DNA of 20,725 nucleotides from a virus, in UHGV virus genome UHGV-1517735; one strand, 5' to 3'. Positions 5,139 to 19,976 of this stretch are shown here, one piece after another; position 1 is the stretch's first letter; each line of letters opens with the position of its first letter. The notes beneath the pieces are model-generated. The model had not been told where the DNA came from. It made no database searches and saw nothing but the letters and a program-made list of their open reading frames with translations. A program made the position numbers and the translations under genes.

Positions 5139-5157
5139 AACTTGTTACCTCGGTCTG

Positions 5158-5234
5158 TTACCGTTGAGGTAATAATTATGCGTATTTGGTTTGATGTCAA
5201 TAGATATGAGTTAAAAAAATTACCCATTAGGTAA
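5158..5234 (-). promoter_or_regulatory. PL-like leftward early promoter with two flanking operators
   Basis: Operators TTACC-GTTGA-GGTAA (5158-5172) and TTACC-CATTA-GGTAA (5220-5234); minus-strand -35 TTGACA at 5195-5200; AT-rich -10 region around 5172-5180. Confidence 0.55.
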
Positions 5235-5243
5235 TAGTATAGG

Positions 5244-5291: not shown

Positions 5292-5876
5292 TTATTGTTT
5301 GTTTTTTTCGTTCTGGTTGATGACAAATTCAATGTAACTTTCGATCTTTGCTTTCTCAGTTTCGGGTAACAATGCGTAGCGCGAGCGGTCATAGTTGATG
5401 GTCGCAGGGTCGTGCGGGTGAATCAGTAATTCATAGCCGTGACGCCCGAATGCGGATGCAACATTCTCCAGGGTGGAAATGGAAACGCTGACCTCATTGT
5501 TTAACAGGCGGCTGATTGTCACCTGGGCGACGCCGGATGCGCGGTGAAGTTTTCCCTGTGTTGAAAGGTCGCGGCTTTCGCTCATCCAGCGTTCCAGGTT
5601 GTGAGCCGCCAGCTGACCTATATCGCTCGGGCCGACAGGCTGAAAACCTTCCTGAGAAAGCGAGCGATCGATATCAAGCCAGTTACGTGGTTTATTGGCG
5701 GCAGCTTCAATTTTTCGCGCAACCTGGTCGCCGATAACCTTCTTGCCAAGAGCCCAGCGGTTTACCAGATTTGCCTGAGTTCCAAGTTTTTCTGCCATCC
5801 GCGTCTGAACACCATTGAATTCACGGTCGATCAAGTCGTTGAGATTTTGCCTGCGGACGTCCTGGATACTTTTCAT
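5292..5876 (-). CDS. CI-like prophage repressor with two HTH domains and no LexA-like peptidase domain
   Basis: 194-aa ORF divergent from the Cro-like gene; N-terminal HTH (QTRMAEKLGTQANLVNRWALGKK) and a second HTH-like segment (SGVAQVTISRLLNNEVSVSISTLENVASAFG); no S24 peptidase signature. Confidence 0.8.
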   Translation of the reverse strand: MKSIQDVRRQNLNDLIDREFNGVQTRMAEKLGTQANLVNRWALGKKVIGDQVARKIEAAANKPRNWLDIDRSLSQEGFQPVGPSDIGQLAAHNLERWMSESRDLSTQGKLHRASGVAQVTISRLLNNEVSVSISTLENVASAFGRHGYELLIHPHDPATINYDRSRYALLPETEKAKIESYIEFVINQNEKNKQ

Positions 5877-5931
5877 TTTCTGGAAAATCGCCTCATATAT
5901 GAATCAGTAGATGATTCAATTTAAAGCAATA

Positions 5932-6005
5932 TTACCCAACAGGTAAATGCACCTCATAGGTAACTATCCTTGATTTTTGTTACCTTATGGGTGAATATTT
6001 ATTAT
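5932..6005. promoter_or_regulatory. OR-like operator cluster (three sites) with PR-like promoter
   Basis: TTACC-CAACA-GGTAA (5932-5946), GCACC-TCATA-GGTAA (5949-5963), TTACC-TTATG-GGTGA (5980-5994); -35 TTGTTA (5977-5982), 17-bp spacer, -10 TATTAT (6000-6005) so the third operator sits inside the promoter. Confidence 0.6.
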
Positions 6006-6030: not shown

Positions 6031-6261
6031 ATGAGCGATAACGGACATTTCGATTTCAAAAAGCACTGGCTTGCACTTACTCCGGATGAGCGTGAAGCCT
6101 TCGCACAGGAAGCCGGAACGACGAGTCACTATATCCAGACTCACTTAACAGGTAAGCGCAAAATGCCAGGTAAAGTATTGATGAATGGGCTTTTTAAAGC
6201 CTGTAAAACAAGACAATGGCTGCGCTCAAAAGCAGAACTGGCATACTTCTTCTACTCATGA
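6031..6261 (+). CDS. Cro-like HTH regulator
   Basis: 76-aa ORF divergent from the repressor; HTH-like segment EAFAQEAGTTSHYIQTHLTGKRKMP. Confidence 0.65.
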   Translation: MSDNGHFDFKKHWLALTPDEREAFAQEAGTTSHYIQTHLTGKRKMPGKVLMNGLFKACKTRQWLRSKAELAYFFYS

Positions 6262-6307: not shown

Positions 6308-6316
6308 TATCTATTC

Positions 6317-6331
6317 GTACCTCAAAGGTAA
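6317..6331. promoter_or_regulatory. Operator-like palindrome GTACC-TCAAA-GGTAA (9/10)
   Basis: Immediately downstream of the post-cro terminator, upstream of the replication genes. Confidence 0.4.
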
Positions 6332-6409
6332 TAAAAAACCAAATCTGGTTGATCAAATTTTCCAATTGTGCAAAATAGCCAATATCAATAACAAAAAGGG
6401 GCGGAAAAA

Positions 6410-8200: not shown

Positions 8201-8212
8201 ACGCCTCGATAA

Positions 8213-8289
8213 TTACCTGTTAGGTAACAAAATATTATAAACTCTATTGATTTCATGTCTTATGTGGTTTTTAATTACCTCAGAGGTAA
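8213..8289 (+). promoter_or_regulatory. Operator-flanked promoter for the downstream operon
   Basis: TTACC-TGTTA-GGTAA (8213-8227) and TTACC-TCAGA-GGTAA (8275-8289); -35 TTGATT (8247-8252), 17-bp spacer, -10 TTTAAT (8270-8275); same layout as the PL-like promoter. Confidence 0.55.
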
Positions 8290-8292
8290 ATC

Positions 8293-11245: not shown

Positions 11246-11519
11246 CCTGCAACTTGCCGTCAAAGGTGAATACTTCGATGCCATGATTCGCGGGGAGAAA
11301 ACGGAAGAGTATCGCCTGTGTAATGACTACTGGAAAAAGCGCCTCGTTAACCGTAAGCATGACCGCCTGATTATCACAAAGGGATATCCGAAGCGCGACG
11401 ATTCCAGCCGCAGAATAGACGTCCCGTATGAAGGGTATGAAATCAAGACAATCACACATCCGCACTTCGGCGATAAACCGGTAAAGGTGTTCGCGATAAA
11501 GGTAAATATTGATGGCTAA
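11238..11519 (+). CDS. ASCH-domain-like protein (93 aa)
   Basis: GTG at 11238 preceded by AGGAGG; LQLAVKGEYFDAMIRGEKTEEYR resembles the ASCH N-terminal strand-turn motif. Confidence 0.6.
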   Translation: MANLQLAVKGEYFDAMIRGEKTEEYRLCNDYWKKRLVNRKHDRLIITKGYPKRDDSSRRIDVPYEGYEIKTITHPHFGDKPVKVFAIKVNIDG

Positions 11520-11850
11520 ATCAGCAGCAGAGCGCAAAGCCGCTCAGAGAGCCAGACAAGCTGCATCTGGTGTGCGTAAACTGGAGATTGTGCTTGATGC
11601 TCAGGAAATTGAAATGCTGGAGCGTAACTGTGCCACGCGTCGCCCCGGGCGTGCGCCTTACGAATTTGGTGAGTATATAGCGTTACTGATCCGCCAGGAT
11701 GATGCACGCGTGCGCGGGCGTATAAAATCGATCAGCAGAAAACGTTGCGGTAAGTGCGGAGAGAGAGTTCCAGTTAATTCATGCCCGTGTAATGGTGACT
11801 CGCAATGCTGGGTGACTAAAGGCTGGCATGAAACGAAATTAATAGTGTGA
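11512..11850 (+). CDS. Cys-rich zinc-finger protein (112 aa), candidate late-gene regulator
   Basis: Basic N-terminal segment; C-terminal CGKCG...CPCNGDSQC; last gene before the terminator and operators upstream of terminase. Confidence 0.6.
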   Translation: MAKSAAERKAAQRARQAASGVRKLEIVLDAQEIEMLERNCATRRPGRAPYEFGEYIALLIRQDDARVRGRIKSISRKRCGKCGERVPVNSCPCNGDSQCWVTKGWHETKLIV

Positions 11851-11858: not shown

Positions 11859-11897
11859 GAGTAGATTATGCATGATGAATTTGATGGTTTTGAATAC

Positions 11898-11925
11898 TGC
11901 CGCCAACTATGGCGGCTTTATTTTG
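11898..11925 (+). terminator. Rho-independent terminator upstream of terminase genes (tR-prime-like position)
   Basis: GCCGCC / GGCGGC stem with AACTAT loop, followed by TTTATTTTG. Confidence 0.65.
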
Positions 11926-11934
11926 CATGGTACT

Positions 11935-11967
11935 ATTACCACAACGGTAACTATTACCACGGTGGTT
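11935..11967. promoter_or_regulatory. Two operator-like palindromes immediately upstream of the terminase small subunit
   Basis: TTACC-ACAAC-GGTAA (11935-11949) and TTACC-ACGGT-GGTTA (11953-11967), the second abutting the start codon. Confidence 0.5.
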
Positions 11968-12564
11968 ATGATGCCTGCTGAACCTAAAACCTATAAACGC
12001 AAATCAACGCAATTTAAGCCACTAACAGCAATGCAGGAGGCTTATTGCCAGTCATACATCAAAACGCCTGAAAACCAGACTCAGGCAGCGATTAATGCAG
12101 GATTCTCCCCAAATACAGCGGCAGTTAAAGCCAGTGTCATGATGCGCGATGAACGCATTCAAAAACGGATTGCCGAGTTGATGGAGGAGCGCAACAAACG
12201 AATGCGCGTCAGTGCTGATTACGTTCTCATGCGCCTGGTGGAGATCGACCAGATGGACGTGATCGACATCCTCAACGACGATGGGAGCCTTAAGCCAATC
12301 CGCGAGTGGCCGAAAATCTGGCGCACTACGCTTAGTGGCTTTGATCTGTCATCGACCATCATGAACATGAACGAGGATTCGATAGAGACAATCCTCAAAA
12401 AAATTAAATGGCCTGACAAGGTGAAGAACCTCGAACTGATTGGTAAGCACGTCGACGTCAACGCATTCAAAGAACGCCTGGATGTTAATGTGAATGTGAC
12501 AATTGCTGATCGCATAGCAGCAGCCAGGAAGCGACTCAAAGAACGTCAGGATGGCAATCAGTGA
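11968..12564 (+). CDS. Terminase small subunit (start uncertain; upstream in-frame ATGs rejected because they span the terminator)
   Basis: HTH-like segment TQAAINAGFSPNTAAVKASVMMRDERIQKRI typical of small terminase subunits; directly upstream of and overlapping the large subunit. Confidence 0.7.
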   Translation: MMPAEPKTYKRKSTQFKPLTAMQEAYCQSYIKTPENQTQAAINAGFSPNTAAVKASVMMRDERIQKRIAELMEERNKRMRVSADYVLMRLVEIDQMDVIDILNDDGSLKPIREWPKIWRTTLSGFDLSSTIMNMNEDSIETILKKIKWPDKVKNLELIGKHVDVNAFKERLDVNVNVTIADRIAAARKRLKERQDGNQ

Positions 12565-14036
12565 CAGATGCAGCGTTATCTCCTGAAGAGCAGTTGATCG
12601 AGGATATTGCAGGGTTCACTCACGATCCGCTTGGCTATGCCCTCTATGCGTTCCCGTGGGGGGAAGAGGGGACTGAACTGGCACATGCTACCGGCCCACG
12701 TCAGTGGCAGGCCGATGCGTTCCGAGAGATACGTGATCACCTGCAGAATCCAGAGACGCGCTATCAGCCGCTTATGCTGGCACGCGCTTCTGGTCACGGT
12801 ATTGGTAAATCCGCATTCATCTCAATGCTGATCAACTGGGGCATGTCCACTTGCGAGGATTGTAAGGTCGTGGTGACCGCCAACACCGACAACCAGCTAC
12901 GAACGAAGACCTGGCCGGAAATTATCAAGTGGTCGAACCTTGCTATCACGAAAGACTGGTTTACCTGTACTGCTACCGCGATGTACAGCAATGACCCAGG
13001 GCACGACAAGCGGTGGCGGGCTGACGCAATACCCTGGTCTGAGCACAACACTGAGGCATTCGCCGGACTACACAACGAGCGCAAACGCATCATCGTGGTA
13101 TTCGATGAAGCGTCGAACATTGCGGATTTGGTGTGGGAAGTTGCCGAGGGTGCGCTAACGGACGAAGACACTGAGATTATCTGGGTGGCATTCGGAAACC
13201 CGACGCGTAATACCGGACGTTTCCGCGAATGTTTCCGCAAATATAAACACCGCTGGAAAACTGCGCAGATTGACAGCCGGACGGTGGAAGGCACTAACAA
13301 ACAGCAGTTGCAGAAATGGGTTGATGACTACGGGGAAGACAGCGACTTCGTTAAAATCCGTGTGCGCGGCATATTCCCGGATGCATCTGAATTGCAGTTT
13401 ATCCCTACCGGACTTACTGACGAGGCAATGAAACGGGTGGTCACCGCTGCGCAGGTTGCACATGCTCCGGTGATAATCGGCGTTGACCCGGCATACTCAG
13501 GCGTTGATGACGCGGTGATATACCTGCGGCAGGGGCTGCACAGTAAGGTGCTATGGACTGGTAACAAGACCACCGACGATCTGATTATGGCGAAGCGTAT
13601 CGCTGACTTTGAAGACCAGTACCAGGCTGACGCGGTGTTCATCGACTTCGGTTACGGTACCGGTCTGAAGTCAATCGGTGACGGTTGGGGGCGTACATGG
13701 CAACTTGTTCCGTTCGGTGGCGCGTCTACTGATCCGCAGATGCTTAACAAGCGTGGGGAGATGTTCAACTCATGCAAGACATGGCTGAGGCTGGGCGGCA
13801 TGCTGGATGACCAGGAAACAGCGGACGACCTGTCGGCGGCAGAGTACAAAGTTCGCGTGGACGGTAAAATCGTTATCGAACCGAAGGAAGATATCAAGGA
13901 GCGGCTTGGGCGTTCGCCGGGTAAAGGCGATGCGCTACTGCTGACGTTTGCGTTCCCTGTGTCTAAGCGTCTGCGAATTCCCGGGCAGCAGAACCAGCAA
14001 GGCAAGGCCATCACAGATTACGATCCCTATGCTTAA
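12561..14036 (+). CDS. Terminase large subunit
   Basis: 491-aa ORF, GTG start overlapping upstream stop; Walker A ARASGHGIGKSAF, Walker B-like IIVVFDEASNI, C-terminal nuclease-like IGVDPAYSG..D region. Confidence 0.92.
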   Translation: MTDAALSPEEQLIEDIAGFTHDPLGYALYAFPWGEEGTELAHATGPRQWQADAFREIRDHLQNPETRYQPLMLARASGHGIGKSAFISMLINWGMSTCEDCKVVVTANTDNQLRTKTWPEIIKWSNLAITKDWFTCTATAMYSNDPGHDKRWRADAIPWSEHNTEAFAGLHNERKRIIVVFDEASNIADLVWEVAEGALTDEDTEIIWVAFGNPTRNTGRFRECFRKYKHRWKTAQIDSRTVEGTNKQQLQKWVDDYGEDSDFVKIRVRGIFPDASELQFIPTGLTDEAMKRVVTAAQVAHAPVIIGVDPAYSGVDDAVIYLRQGLHSKVLWTGNKTTDDLIMAKRIADFEDQYQADAVFIDFGYGTGLKSIGDGWGRTWQLVPFGGASTDPQMLNKRGEMFNSCKTWLRLGGMLDDQETADDLSAAEYKVRVDGKIVIEPKEDIKERLGRSPGKGDALLLTFAFPVSKRLRIPGQQNQQGKAITDYDPYA

Positions 14037-14077
14037 TCCGCTTGAGGGGATAATGTCGTTGATATCCTCTGATGAGG

Positions 14078-14106
14078 ATAAAACAAAGCCAGCTCATCGG
14101 CTGGCT
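14078..14106 (-). terminator. Rho-independent terminator downstream of the minus-strand cargo ORF
   Basis: AGCCAGC / GCTGGCT stem with 6-nt loop, followed on the minus strand by TTTGTTTTAT. Confidence 0.5.
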
Positions 14107-14109
14107 GTT

Positions 14110-14123
14110 TGTGACATGTCACA
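14110..14123. repeat. 14-bp palindrome TGTGACATGTCACA (copy 2 of GTGACATGTCAC)
   Basis: Identical 12-bp core to 11847-11858; lies between the cargo ORF stop and its terminator. Confidence 0.5.
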
Positions 14124-14126
14124 GCG

Positions 14127-14546
14127 TTACTTAATGGCATCAAATCCAGCGTTGATGGCTTCCGCAATATTGATGGCACTTGTTTTATCGAATTGCCTAT
14201 TCTGAATAAGCGCCGCATGCAGGCATTGTAACTTCATGTTGTATAAGTGTTCGCTCATGTAATCATTATCACTTTTTGTTTTAGCGCAAACAGAGCGAGA
14301 AATATCAAACACATCGCCTTTTTCCATTTCAGAACGTTGTGCTGTTATCCAGTCATGGAACGTAACGCTAGTACCATGGTCTTCGCTAAGAGTTAACCCG
14401 GCCAGTCCCTCACTCTGAATTACTTCGTAATGCATTTCATTACCAGCAAAAACGCCATAAAAAATGCAGTCTTCAGCCTGAACGATACGAGAATATTTTA
14501 ATGGCCATTCATTTAGATACTTAGCCAACATATCAATTGTCTTCAT
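14127..14546 (-). CDS. Hypothetical cargo/moron protein (139 aa), opposite strand to flanking late genes
   Basis: ORF with RBS AAGGTGA; AT-rich codon usage unlike neighbours; own terminator; no domain recognised, no predicted TM segment. Confidence 0.7.
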   Translation of the reverse strand: MKTIDMLAKYLNEWPLKYSRIVQAEDCIFYGVFAGNEMHYEVIQSEGLAGLTLSEDHGTSVTFHDWITAQRSEMEKGDVFDISRSVCAKTKSDNDYMSEHLYNMKLQCLHAALIQNRQFDKTSAINIAEAINAGFDAIK

Positions 14547-14552
14547 GATCTC

Positions 14553-14580
14553 ACCTTAAAAAAATGCCCGGCGAACCGGG
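14553..14580 (-). terminator. Terminator-like hairpin immediately upstream of the cargo ORF RBS
   Basis: GCCCGG / CCGGGC stem with TTCG-type loop followed on the minus strand by ATTTTTTT, then AAGGTGAGATC-ATG. Confidence 0.55.
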
Positions 14581-14657
14581 CGAACTGGAAGCAATGAGTT
14601 ATGCCTTCCGTGGTTGTACTGGTTTACAGCATGAAGTCATCGCAATGGCGTCCTGCT

Positions 14658-14701
14658 GTAAAAAGGGCGGTGATAGTTCTTCAAGGGAAACCATCACCGC
14701 C
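14658..14701 (-). terminator. Possible terminator hairpin downstream of the tRNA
   Basis: 9-bp stem GGCGGTGAT / ATCACCGCC with 18-nt loop, followed on the minus strand by CTTTTTA. Confidence 0.35.
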
Positions 14702-14744
14702 AAGCCCCTGGAACTTCTGGCATCACGGTCCTTAGGCGTGATTC

Positions 14745-14821
14745 TGGCGTGGCATGCAGGATTCGAACCTGCGACCAACCGCTTAGAAGGCGGTTGCTCT
14801 GTCCAACTGAGCTAATGCCAC
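14745..14821 (-). tRNA. tRNA-Arg, anticodon UCU (argU-like, phage-borne)
   Basis: 77-nt cloverleaf read on the minus strand: acceptor GTGGCAT/ATGCCAC, D-stem GCTC/GAGC, anticodon stem ACCGC/GCGGT with loop CUUCUAA, T-stem GCAGG/CCTGC with TTCGAAT loop, encoded CCA. Confidence 0.92.
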
Positions 14822-15143
14822 AACGCTGAGAGCACTTAGCCTGTTAAGGCGCCACACTTTGTCGCGGCTCCATAAATGCTCTCATCGTTGTACCCTCGTC
14901 TCTTCCGAGGCGTCACACCGAATCGCCGGGATGGTGAATCCCCGTGCGCGGAATAAAACCGCTCGACTTGCACATTCCGGCTACCTGGTTCGTTTGCCCG
15001 AGCAAGGGAGGGTGCCCCTTAAACGTATCCAGACCGCTATCGGCGCATGTGCCAGACGCCGTACTGCTCAAAATAAAAGCTCACTCCACCTGTTCAATTT
15101 AACGACAAGCCAGTCAGGTTAGTAACCGGAATGAACTCTTTGG

Positions 15144-15158
15144 TTACCTGAAAGGTAA
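15144..15158. promoter_or_regulatory. Operator-like palindrome TTACC-TGAAA-GGTAA upstream of the head module
   Basis: Perfect match to the recurring palindrome; intergenic. Confidence 0.5.
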
Positions 15159-15248
15159 TAATTTGTGCGTTAAATGTCAACTACCTACGATAAATAAATC
15201 ATATGTGGTTAAATTGGTAATAATTTAATTGCGTACGGAGTCATTGAT

Positions 15249-15455
15249 ATGTGCATGGGTAGCTCACCATCAGTGCCTGCAACACCAGAAGTTCAGGCAG
15301 CACCACAGGAGCAGGATGCCGCCGTTGTTGATGCCCGCGACGAAGAAACTCGTCGCCGTCGCGCTGCTGCTGGTCGTAGTTCTACGCTGCTTACCGGTTC
15401 TCAGGGCGACACATCAACCGCTAATACCAGCGGTAAAACGCTGCTTGGTCAGTAA
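15249..15455 (+). CDS. Small Ala/Gln/Arg-rich protein (68 aa), possibly a virion internal protein
   Basis: RBS CGGAG; begins MCMGSSPS; located directly upstream of the portal gene; loose resemblance from memory to small podovirus internal proteins. Confidence 0.5.
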   Translation: MCMGSSPSVPATPEVQAAPQEQDAAVVDARDEETRRRRAAAGRSSTLLTGSQGDTSTANTSGKTLLGQ

Positions 15456-15469
15456 CCGGAGTCATTGAA

Positions 15470-17149
15470 ATGGCGGAAACAACTAAAGAGCGATTGAACA
15501 AACAGTTCGCACAACTTGAAAGCGAGCGTCAGTCGTTCGAGCCGCACTGGCGCGAGTTGAGTGATTACATCAACCCGCGTGGTTCCCGCTTTCTGACTTC
15601 TGAGGTCAACCGTAACGATCGACGCAATACACGCATTATTGATTCGACCGGGACTATGGCGGCGCGCACTCTCGCCAGCGGCATGATGTCAGGCATCACA
15701 AGCCCCGCGCGTCCGTGGTTTCGCCTGGCTACGCCAGATCCTGAAATGATGGATTATGGCCCTGTTAAGTTGTGGCTTGAGGCGGTGCAGAACCGCATGA
15801 ACGATATGTTCAATAAGTCGAATCTCTATCAGTCGCTGCCGCAGTTATACGGAAGCCTCGGCACATACAGCACTGGCGCAATGGCGGTGCTGGAGGATGA
15901 CGAGGACATCATTCGTACAATGCCATTCCCGATAGGAAGTTACTACCTGGCTAACTCACCTCGTGGCAGTGTGGACACCTGTTTTCGCAAGTTCTCTATG
16001 ACTGTTCGTCAGCTTGTTCAGGAGTTTGGACTAAATAACGTCAGCGAATCCGTAAAAAGCATGTGGGAAAGCGGCACCTACGAGAGGTGGATTGAAGTGA
16101 TGCATTCGGTTTACCCGAACATTGACCGCGATACATCGAAGCTGGATAGCAAGAACAAGCCATTCAAATCGGTTTATTACGAGGTTGGTGGCGATAACGA
16201 CAAGTTGTTGCGTGAGTCCGGATTCGATGAGTTTCCAATTATGGCTCCGCGCTGGGAAGTTAACGGCGAAGATGTTTATGGATCATCATGCCCGGGTATG
16301 CTGGCGCTTGGACCTGTTAAGGCATTGCAGCTTCTCCAGAAGCGCAAGTCGCAGTTGATTGATAAAGCCACCAATCCGCCGATGGTTGCTCCGACTTCCC
16401 TCAAGAATCAGCGCGCCTCCCTTCTTCCTGGCGACATCACGTATATCGATCAGATTACTGGTCAGGATGGTTTCAGGCCTGCTTATCTGGTTAACCCCAG
16501 TACAGCAGATCTGGTAGCAGACATTCAGGACACTCGTCAAATCATTAACAGCGCCTACTTTGTCGATCTGTTCATGATGTTGCAGAACATCAATACCCGC
16601 TCGATGCCTGTTGAAGCGGTGATTGAAATGAAAGAAGAAAAACTTCTGATGTTGGGTCCGGTTCTGGAGCGTCTGAACGACGAATGTCTTAATCCTCTCA
16701 TTGACCGCGCTTTCTCGATGATGGTGCGTAAAAACATGCTGCCGCCACCGCCTGACGCGATGGAAGGTATGCCCCTGAAGGTCGAATACATTTCCGTCAT
16801 GGCTCAGGCGCAGAAGTCTATCGGCCTGTCCAGTCTGGCATCCACGGTCAACTTCATTGGTCAACTTGCGCAAGCGAAACCAGAAGCTCTCGACAAACTC
16901 AACGTTGATCAGGCGATTGATGCATTTGCTGATATGTCCGGTGTGTCTCCAACCGTCATTGTTCCGCAGGAACAGGTTGAGCAGGCTCGCCAGCAACGGG
17001 CACAGCAGCAACAGCAGCAACAAATGATGGCGATGGGGATGGCAGCGGCACAGGGTGCCAAGACGCTAAGCGAAGCTAAAACTTCGGATCCGAGTGTTTT
17101 GTCAGCTATGGCGAATGCAGTTAGTGGTCAGGGGGGGCAATCACAATGA
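15470..17149 (+). CDS. Portal / head-to-tail connector protein
   Basis: 559-aa ORF in the terminase-portal-scaffold-capsid order; Gln/Ala/Met-rich C-terminal tail (QQRAQQQQQQQMMAMGMAAAQG) reminiscent of podovirus connector proteins. Confidence 0.8.
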   Translation: MAETTKERLNKQFAQLESERQSFEPHWRELSDYINPRGSRFLTSEVNRNDRRNTRIIDSTGTMAARTLASGMMSGITSPARPWFRLATPDPEMMDYGPVKLWLEAVQNRMNDMFNKSNLYQSLPQLYGSLGTYSTGAMAVLEDDEDIIRTMPFPIGSYYLANSPRGSVDTCFRKFSMTVRQLVQEFGLNNVSESVKSMWESGTYERWIEVMHSVYPNIDRDTSKLDSKNKPFKSVYYEVGGDNDKLLRESGFDEFPIMAPRWEVNGEDVYGSSCPGMLALGPVKALQLLQKRKSQLIDKATNPPMVAPTSLKNQRASLLPGDITYIDQITGQDGFRPAYLVNPSTADLVADIQDTRQIINSAYFVDLFMMLQNINTRSMPVEAVIEMKEEKLLMLGPVLERLNDECLNPLIDRAFSMMVRKNMLPPPPDAMEGMPLKVEYISVMAQAQKSIGLSSLASTVNFIGQLAQAKPEALDKLNVDQAIDAFADMSGVSPTVIVPQEQVEQARQQRAQQQQQQQMMAMGMAAAQGAKTLSEAKTSDPSVLSAMANAVSGQGGQSQ

Positions 17150-19640: not shown

Positions 19641-19976
19641 ATGTCTGGTGAGAAACCAAGATACCGCGTTCTGCGCCTCTCTCATATCCATAACACACTG
19701 TGGACGGAGGGAGCAGAAATCGAATACGAAGGTGAGCCTGGTAGCGCACTGGAACCTGTTAACGATGCAGCCAGACAGGCAAAAGCAAAAGTTGCAGGAA
19801 AGGTGTCAATGGCAGCAACCAGCACCAAAATCATCAACGATGTGTCAGATGATGGTGAACTGGATAAGCTCCGTGAAGAGTACGAATTGCTCTTTAACGA
19901 GAAGCCACACCATAACGCCAAAGCAGAAACGCTCCGCGAGAAGATCGCAGATAAGCGTAAAGAACTGGGCGTGTAA
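19641..19976 (+). CDS. Hypothetical head-module protein (111 aa)
   Basis: ATG 19641 preceded by AAGGTGA; followed by a terminator-like hairpin. Confidence 0.55.
   Translation: MSGEKPRYRVLRLSHIHNTLWTEGAEIEYEGEPGSALEPVNDAARQAKAKVAGKVSMAATSTKIINDVSDDGELDKLREEYELLFNEKPHHNAKAETLREKIADKRKELGV

Follow-up and report, generated by a model that had tools for sequence, protein, structure and literature searches.

The minus strand of the 20,725-nt virus genome UHGV-1517735 (referred to as the window, meaning the whole stretch of DNA that was analysed) carries a terminator hairpin, designated T2, which directly precedes the Shine-Dalgarno (SD) sequence of an open reading frame (ORF) encoding 139 amino acids (aa), the cargo ORF. 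Judged by its anatomy, conservation, and covariation in the sequence, T2 is a genuine Rho-independent terminator, and it would be expected to terminate transcription in vivo. The interpretation favoured here, with moderate confidence, is that T2 comes second in a pair of tandem terminators and that the cargo is made by low, unregulated read-through, which is gated upstream by the phage repressor. T2 as such is an ordinary element of a standard type. It belongs to a terminator-SD socket that is reused for cargo without promoters, a previously unremarked arrangement of such ordinary elements, and no account of the T2-SD junction was found in the literature searched. In the direction of transcription, the minus-strand unit consists of a promoter, a leader of about 320 nt, a tRNA-Arg(UCU) gene, a trailer hairpin, a first terminator (T1), a 40-nt element, a small hairpin, T2, the SD sequence, and the cargo ORF.

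Anatomy of the T2 terminator

T2 (14558-14581, minus strand) is formed by the stem-loop GCCCGG-UUCG-CCGGGC (14581-14566), which is followed by A14565 and a tract of seven U residues (14564-14558). The SD sequence and the start codon occupy positions 14544-14557 of the same strand, with AAGGUGA at 14557-14551, four further bases, and AUG at 14546-14544, so that the start codon is reached 11 nt after the last U of T2. The original prediction of a hairpin with seven U residues in front of the 139-aa ORF was thus accurate, and its coordinates (14553-14580) were right within 1 nt; the SD sequence, which had been placed about 6 nt behind the U-tract, in fact begins directly after it (0-2 nt). T1, which lies upstream of T2, had been missed.

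Folded alone, the T2 hairpin has a free energy of -11.2 kcal/mol and an ensemble frequency of 96%. A generic scan flags it as terminator-like, with six of six G-C pairs and a UUCG loop. It is located on the transcribed strand 3' of the tRNA-Arg gene, and its plus-strand version lacks a U-tract. Matches to a loose terminator pattern are hardly more frequent in the window than expected (27 versus 20.5 +/- 3.5), and for this reason a strict version with six Watson-Crick pairs, at least five of them G-C, a loop of 3-6 nt, and a T run of at least six was counted. Only two sites in the window match this pattern, T2 and the terminator behind the repressor gene, compared to 0.003 per window in 300 dinucleotide shuffles.

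Conservation and covariation of T2

Related loci were collected by scanning viral contigs with two conserved strings of the unit, which yielded about 200 loci. Diversity was drawn from this source because the leader core, when used to scan species-representative genomes, returned two loci only. Among the 155 loci with the invariant 40-nt element and enough downstream sequence, T2 is found in 150, and in 148 of these the 6-bp stem is perfect. The T run has a length of seven in 135 of the 150 loci and otherwise ranges from five to eight; one variant with ten T residues occurs in another set. Three versions of the stem exist, namely GCCCGG/CCGGGC in 116 loci, GCCCAC/GUGGGC in 27, and GCCCGC/GCGGGC in three to four, and the loop is inverted in one case and altered in several other variants. 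In an alignment of 127 distinct trailer sequences, 99.1% of the cells of T2 are paired, and two of the six pairs are changed on both sides, from G-C to A-U in 22 sequences and from G-C to C-G in 26. The three stem versions, the inverted loop, the constant T run, and the nearly complete pairing suggest that selection acts on the structure of T2 rather than on its sequence.

In two loci (L162 and L163), T2 is the final element of the unit and abuts the stop codon of the convergent terminase gene, with neither cargo nor the terminator T3 that follows the cargo in the window. Natural variants without T2 exist as well: in L099 a deletion between GTTCG repeats has removed the 5' arm, L051 has another sequence in place of T2, and L136 lacks the entire T1-T2 module. 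These three loci are ready-made controls for the effect of T2 on cargo expression.

The cargo ORF and its exchange

Homology between the phages ends at the U-tract and the SD sequence. In 107 of the 150 loci with T2, a start codon follows within 20 nt of the T run with no operator or promoter in between, and about 100 of these 107 loci share AAGGTG between the T run and otherwise unrelated ORFs. The AAGGUGA-AUG junction is therefore part of a conserved platform. At least eight unrelated ORF families are found directly behind T2, 11-16 nt after the U-tract. Among them are the family of the window's own 139-aa ORF, the N4 gp49/Sf6 gp66 family (Pfam E = 6e-35), which occurs in phiV10, and a family from a Klebsiella phage with a Tad2-like Thoeris anti-defence domain (E = 4e-26). 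Empty sites also occur, in which T2, the SD sequence, the ATG and a stub of eight codons are kept and are followed by the downstream terminator. In L150 and L151, ORFs are inserted between the tRNA gene and T1; since insertions thus also occur elsewhere inside the unit, it appears to be used as a polycistronic carrier.

A contrasting class of cargo encodes membrane-like proteins of 200-300 aa and is separated from T2 by a spacer of about 60 nt that holds its own promoter (GTGACT-17-TAAGAT, ATGACC-17-TATAAT, or GTGACT-17-TAATAT), with the same phage operator inside the promoter spacer. The membrane-protein cargo demonstrates that a promoter can evolve in the slot, yet none is present in the class in which the SD sequence is fused directly to T2.

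The right border of the slot in the window is marked by a perfect 12-bp palindrome, GTGACATGTCAC (14111-14122), which is also found directly after the stop codons of unrelated cargo genes and in empty sites, and could act as a border for recombination or as a site bound by a protein. It is followed by T3 (14080-14106, minus strand), detected by the terminator scan as AGCCAGC-CGAUG-AGCUGGCU with a subsequent UUGUUUU and a folding energy of -11.5 kcal/mol. The annotation of phiV10 places this terminator on the plus strand, as that of the large terminase gene.

The cargo ORF (14127-14546, minus strand, from the ORF list) matches no Pfam family, and the PHROG to which it is assigned, 4846, is labelled 'unknown function'; searches of the PDB and with PADLOC gave no match either. 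Its 103 homologues are distributed over four genera, are mostly 139-142 aa long, and are all annotated as hypothetical. An AlphaFold (AF2) model of the protein is poor (pLDDT 67, pTM 0.33), which ruled out a fold search. The C-terminal third (14127-14290), about 50 residues with the pattern ENLYxxKLQCL...AINAxFDxI, is confidently predicted to form a helical hairpin and recurs in cargo proteins whose N-terminal parts differ (Tyrion gp53, L190, and L099). This common C-terminal part indicates mosaic recombination inside the cargo gene.

These features bear on the possibility that the juxtaposition of T2 and the cargo is an accident of cassette insertion and that the cargo is effectively silent. 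The recombination borders do coincide with the T2-SD junction and with the palindrome GTGACATGTCAC, and the gene evolves fast, with 44 replacement versus 26 synonymous codon differences between the window and phage PAS61 (L002). A silent gene would, however, hardly be expected to keep its length and 17 invariant residues among 103 homologues from four genera, or a strong SD sequence at optimal spacing, and the same socket accommodates functional families such as the Tad2-like one. This explanation is considered the least probable of all.

Promoter and putative repressor regulon

According to the original prediction, no obvious promoter lies between the hairpin and the cargo ORF. This is borne out, since only 11 nt are available and a lenient scan for sigma-70 promoters finds nothing usable there; in the larger interval between T1 and the ATG, a tool-based scan and the lenient scan (at least 7 of 12 matches) likewise revealed no usable sigma-70 promoter. 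The cargo is without a promoter of its own, and its transcription must therefore cross T2. The nearest credible promoter is that of the tRNA, about 600 nt upstream, which agrees with the suggested coupling to tRNA transcription. This coupling is transcriptional and does not concern codon supply, a possibility that was rejected because the cargo ORF contains no AGA and a single AGG codon; AGA is found mainly in early genes.

A cryptic promoter that overlaps T2 or lies in the T1-T2 spacer, and that depends on an activator or on another sigma factor, would be missed by consensus scans, which cover sigma-70-type promoters only. The invariant 40-nt element could then serve as an activator site, and the window encodes a predicted 'transcriptional regulator' (11509-11850, phrog_536) for which no target is assigned. 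Against such a promoter, no pair of hexamers reaches 7 of 12 matches, and the room between the U-tract and the ATG is limited to 11 nt. Moreover, the spacing of the element and the ATG is not fixed, with a change of 31 nt in PAS61 and L032 and of 6 nt in loci of the Klebsiella type, and the T2 stem, in which the -10 hexamer would have to sit, differs between lineages. A promoter of this kind is accordingly regarded as highly unlikely.

The promoter of the tRNA/cargo unit and its operator (15143-15180, minus strand) comprise TTGACA (15180-15175), a 17-nt spacer, and TACCTT (15157-15152), which represent the best sigma-70 match on the minus strand (9 of 12 positions). The palindrome GTTACC-N5-GGTAAT (15143-15159) overlaps the -10 hexamer and the start site, with the -10 hexamer being its left half. 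In 85 of 85 loci, no variation is seen in the two hexamers or in the operator half-sites, whereas the spacer and the operator centre vary. The same parts are kept in the Salmonella phage SPN9TCW and in the Enterobacter phage Tyrion (L006), where the spacers are unrelated.

Operators of the form ATTACC-N5-GGTAAT are found ten times in the window versus 0.52 expected. A palindrome scan located them at 135-151, 5157-5173, 5219-5235, 5931-5947, 6316-6332, 8212-8228, 8274-8290, 11935-11951, 11953-11969, and 15143-15159. The copy at 5931-5947 lies between the divergent genes for a repressor, a helix-turn-helix (HTH) protein (5292-5876), and a Cro-like protein (6031-6261), and is followed by weaker copies at 5949 and 5979. 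The palindrome also flanks a leftward promoter of the same design, TTGACA-17-AATTAT, and several promoters in all have a copy on or next to them. In the whole genome of SPN9TCW, 18 copies are present at equivalent places, compared to 0.82 expected: a tandem of three separates the repressor gene from the cro-like gene, the leftward early region has another three, one is located on the promoter of the tRNA unit, and further copies precede the terminase, tailspike, lysis, and integrase genes. The simplest reading of this distribution is a genome-wide, many-operator repressor regulon of which the tRNA/cargo unit would be a member, with the repressor presumably binding to the palindrome. In this respect, the phage would be organised more like P1 than like lambda. 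The visible conditionality of cargo expression would then lie at the promoter, by way of the operator that overlaps its -10 hexamer.

Two of the operator palindromes stand in tandem at 11899-11969 (plus strand) behind a strong terminator-like hairpin, GCCGCCAACTATGGCGGC then TTTATTTT. This arrangement lies within the first 100 nt of the ORF called small terminase (11872-12564), and the terminase ORF of SPN9TCW likewise has an operator, at 40-56. The true start of the small terminase gene may be located further downstream, with a repressor-controlled promoter at 11899-11969.

Search for regulated antitermination

The original prediction had also proposed conditional expression of the cargo by read-through or antitermination. 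The part that stands is that a promoterless cargo is located behind a terminator; the part without support is a role of T2 itself as the switch, as neither an antiterminator helix nor an N or Q protein nor a boxA in the transcript was detected. Between T1 and the ATG, both the minimum free energy (MFE) structure and the centroid structure consist of independent hairpins, and no mutually exclusive antiterminator helix was found. The 5' arm of T2, GCCCGG, has no upstream complement, and no upstream sequence covaries with the GCCCAC or GCCCGC versions. Furthermore, the 31 nt just upstream of T2 are deleted in PAS61 and L032. No Rfam riboswitch match was obtained that could act as a sensor, and T2, with neither an alternative helix nor a sensor, differs from a riboswitch-type attenuator. 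Attenuation by a leader peptide was rejected as well, for the spacer ORF of 13 codons has no SD sequence, and neither its frame nor its stop codon is conserved between lineages.

Searches with Pfam and PHROGs among 16 early or regulatory ORFs identified no antiterminator of the N or Q type, although very divergent proteins could escape them, and no N-terminal arginine-rich motif was found in the early and regulatory proteins. The boxA consensus (C/T)GCTCTT(T/A)A occurs in the window only at 15492 (minus strand), which is upstream of the promoter, and at 19888 (plus strand), and thus not within the transcript; a nut site was not found either. The Nus-dependent non-lambdoid coliphages of the literature, which were considered for comparison, belong to an unrelated siphovirus group. 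No transcript mapping for Uetakevirus or phiV10 was found in the literature searched. Regulated antitermination at T2 is thus unsupported.

A broader version of this idea is processive antitermination brought about in cis by the leader, similar to the put RNA of HK022, or by a phage protein, which would make cargo expression stage-specific. In its favour, a socket that is used so widely would otherwise be expressed at a very low level behind its pair of terminators, and the promoter-proximal leader is structured, shows compensatory changes, and is kept in Tyrion without the tRNA. The missing N/Q homologue, arginine-rich motif, in-transcript boxA, and Rfam match speak against it, and a multi-operator repressor that controls many operons directly removes the need for such a cascade. 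In addition, there is no other promoter upstream on the minus strand, so the upkeep of T1 and T2 in 150 of 155 loci would serve no evident purpose if polymerases were made resistant to them. Processive antitermination is therefore judged unlikely, and the favoured reading remains a partial, unregulated read-through of T1 and T2.

Leader, tRNA, and trailer

The unit begins with an untranslated, structured leader RNA of about 320 nt (14822-15145, minus strand) with a conserved core at approximately 15065-14876, which is present in 174 loci. An RNAalifold consensus of ten divergent sequences contains 44 pairs, nine of which have compensatory changes, and the loops UGGCACAUG, UCACCA, and GAAGAGA are invariant. 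The leader ends in the helix AACGAUGAGAGC/GCUCUCAGCGUU around a hypervariable hairpin and abuts the 5' end of the tRNA. It matches no Rfam family even at E<=10, and it is kept in Tyrion, in which the tRNA is absent or replaced. It is possibly an undescribed class of phage RNA.

The tRNA-Arg with the anticodon UCU (14745-14821, minus strand) was identified by ARAGORN and by the Rfam tRNA family (73.3 bits). It alone reaches a gathering threshold of Rfam, and relaxation to E<=10 adds only matches at chance level. Among the candidates, a match to RyhB was rejected, as its 18 bits compare with a gathering score of 55 and reflect the shape of a terminator. In Tyrion, L131, L147, L164, L180, L190, and others, the tRNA slot is occupied by non-tRNA inserts within an acceptor-stem-like GUGGUG...CACCAC-AACC, and some relatives have several tandem slots, each located after a repeat of a GAGAGCAUU-hairpin-AGUGCUCU..CGUUG unit. 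That these inserts are non-tRNA RNAs subject to RNase P-type processing, as P1 c4 or P4 CI RNA, is only an idea suggested by analogy. Parts of the tRNA unit were also found in phage PH444 (114.9 kb), in a Punavirus match, and at 276 places in plasmids; the E. coli plasmids that carry them are possibly P1-like phage-plasmids, and the module may move between phage families.

Directly 3' of the tRNA follows the trailer hairpin AUCACG-N9-CGUGAU (14722-14742, minus strand), which is essentially invariant among the 127 aligned sequences (99.9% of cells paired) and is kept in Tyrion without the tRNA. T1 (14660-14701, minus strand), which was detected by the terminator scan, has a 14-bp stem (14701-14666) and a subsequent CUUUUU, and folds with -22.4 kcal/mol (z = -7.8). 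Its outer helix covaries, with A-U replaced by G-C in 55 sequences. The U-tract of T1 overlaps with the 5' end of the invariant 40-nt element UUUACAGCAGGACGCCAUUGCGAUGACUUCAUGCUGUAAA (14623-14662, minus strand; core CGCCAUUGCGAUGAC, 14650-14636), which is near-invariant across phages of E. coli, Klebsiella, Salmonella, and Enterobacter. A 9-bp inverted repeat in this element was rejected as an RNA helix, since covariation is absent and about 20 sequences break two of its pairs; the element thus behaves as a conserved sequence and is not a proven helix. Between the element and T2, a small, variable hairpin GGAAGGC...GCUUCC (14587-14609, minus strand) is predicted from folding and has no compensatory changes. 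It is dispensable, as it is deleted in PAS61 and L032 with T2 and the cargo retained.

In eight loci (L130, L135, L140, L142, L147, L150, L174, and L201), the module of the 40-nt element and T2 is swapped for another long structured module downstream of T1. The replacement consists of a helix CACAACUGAAAGCGCG/CGCGCUCCCAAUUGUG and a GUCGUUAAAU motif and is followed by a different cargo (MTNTQNVTELQP...). The GUCGUUAAAU motif is also present in the 5' part of the leader of the window (15097-15106).

The 40-nt element forms the basis of another interpretation, according to which T2 with its U-tract is primarily the 3' end of a regulatory RNA about 100 nt long and might be bound by Hfq. The RNA would contain the element and originate from the tRNA trailer or from the T1-T2 interval, and translation of the ORF from rare read-through mRNA would be secondary. 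Outside the tRNA, no sequence of the region is more conserved than the element, and in the window, as in E. coli-type phages, it is complementary to the start region of the portal gene with 13 Watson-Crick pairs and one G-U pair among 15 positions. In E. coli, tRNA 3' trailers that end in a terminator act as regulatory RNAs, an example being 3'ETS-leuZ. On the other side, the element is unchanged in about 25 of 112 loci that have a different portal start, no promoter precedes the T1-T2 interval, so that T1 would need to be leaky, and the exact fusion of a strong SD sequence and ORFs to the U-tract in 107 loci would be left unexplained. Such an RNA is considered distinctly improbable. A small RNA directed against the portal start (15461-15475 versus 14636-14650) was rejected specifically because the portal sequence varies without a matching change in the element. 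The core CGCCAUUGCGAUGAC has a single near-match in the window, antisense to the SD sequence and ATG of the portal gene, and this complementarity, which is lost in Salmonella-type phages, is probably coincidental.

Finally, the 600-nt stretch from the promoter to T2 could form one RNA scaffold of an undescribed kind, which would itself set or gate the read-through, either by antitermination in cis or by processing-dependent stabilisation. It would combine the leader, the exchangeable slots for tRNA or tRNA-like RNAs, the trailer element, and the tandem terminators. The probability of this reading is considered small. If true, the T2-SD junction would be a dedicated port for the early, dose-limited expression of swapped anti-defence or accessory ORFs.

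Proposed read-through route to cargo expression

The minus-strand unit is located between the genes for the large terminase (12561-14036) and the portal protein (15470-17149), which are both encoded on the plus strand according to the annotations of phiV10 and PAS61; the terminase gene is convergent with the tRNA/cargo unit. The window is an epsilon15/phiV10-like temperate podophage of the genus Uetakevirus. Its region 13900-15500 is 95.6% identical to that of Escherichia phage HEMP4 and 98% identical to that of phiV10 across 74% of its length. The arrangement is common, as the region was matched in 1075 of 5426 complete E. coli genomes.

In the proposed sequence of events, a repressor-controlled promoter would drive an early minus-strand unit consisting of the leader, the tRNA-Arg(UCU), and the trailer. 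T1 and T2 would close this unit, and the ancestral role of T2 would be to halt polymerases before a head-on collision with the convergent terminase gene. Accessory ORFs are exchanged as bare cassettes, with the T2-SD junction on one side and the palindrome with T3 on the other; they reuse the strong SD sequence AAGGUGA and bring no promoter. A minority of the polymerases that start at the tRNA promoter would escape both T1 and T2 and produce cargo mRNA, so that the terminators would attenuate the level of expression. The on/off decision would be made by the phage repressor at the promoter, with expression being off in the lysogen and on after infection or induction. The U-rich tract 5' of the SD sequence may also aid translation of the read-through mRNA. 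The cargo would thus probably be made at a low level only, by read-through from the repressor-controlled tRNA operon.

Several points weigh against this interpretation. Two terminators in tandem could leave very little mRNA, and the reliance of many cargo families on a route across T1 and T2 would then be odd, which leaves room for an undiscovered antitermination factor or for a role of the leader. Partial read-through assigns no role to the invariant 40-nt element and also leaves the conserved structured leader without an explanation. The -10 hexamer TACCTT fits the consensus at three of six positions only, and the case for repressor binding to the palindrome is made from position and enrichment. 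The compensatory versions of the T2 stem point clearly in one direction but trace back to few independent events in about two or three lineages.

Comparison with known systems

Internal partial terminators are known from rplL-rpoB in the rplKAJL-rpoBC operon, from T1 between rpsU and dnaG, and from T-phi of phage T7 before genes 11-12. In these systems as in the window, an intrinsic terminator stands between a highly expressed upstream product and a promoterless gene, for which it sets, or in the window would set, a fixed, lower level by read-through. The window differs in that a tRNA and a structured non-coding RNA lie upstream, the terminators are in tandem, and the socket is hypervariable and accepts unrelated ORFs.

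In the late region of the Stx phage 933W, Q, PR', tR', the tRNA genes ileZ-argN-argO, and stxAB follow each other. As in the window, phage tRNAs including a tRNA-Arg reading AGA are co-transcribed with a downstream cargo, and in Stx phages and lambda a terminator is likewise placed between promoter and cargo, whose expression is tied to the loss of repression. Stx phages and lambda have a dedicated Q or N protein with a corresponding site, and their terminator precedes the tRNAs, whereas in the window the terminators are located 3' of the tRNA, no counterpart of N, Q, nut, or qut was found, and control is apparently exerted by the operator.

Morons, as defined by Hendrix and Juhala, consist of a promoter, an ORF, and a terminator inserted between genes that are adjacent in relatives. 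The cargo resembles them in that it is inserted between genes that are adjacent in L162 and L163, has its own terminator T3, and is highly variable. In contrast to morons, the cargo of the window lacks its own promoter and should, according to the model, be off in the lysogen, since the sole promoter carries a repressor operator. Co-transcripts of tRNA and mRNA are known from thrU-tyrU-glyT-thrT-tufB of E. coli and from the tRNA region of T4, in which an ORF is also located 3' of a tRNA in one transcription unit, but these lack terminators between the tRNA and the ORF. The arrangement described here is thus a tidy variant of a known design and not a new mechanism.

Significance for phage biology

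The T2-SD socket shows how an accessory gene that is exchanged rapidly can be expressed by a temperate phage family although it has no promoter, and it provides a search rule, T2-U7-AAGGUG, for finding such cargo. The model predicts that cargo expression is low in dose and limited to the lytic phase. Accordingly, the genes in the slot, including the Tad2-like anti-Thoeris gene, are likely to have functions in early counter-defence or host takeover rather than in lysogenic conversion.

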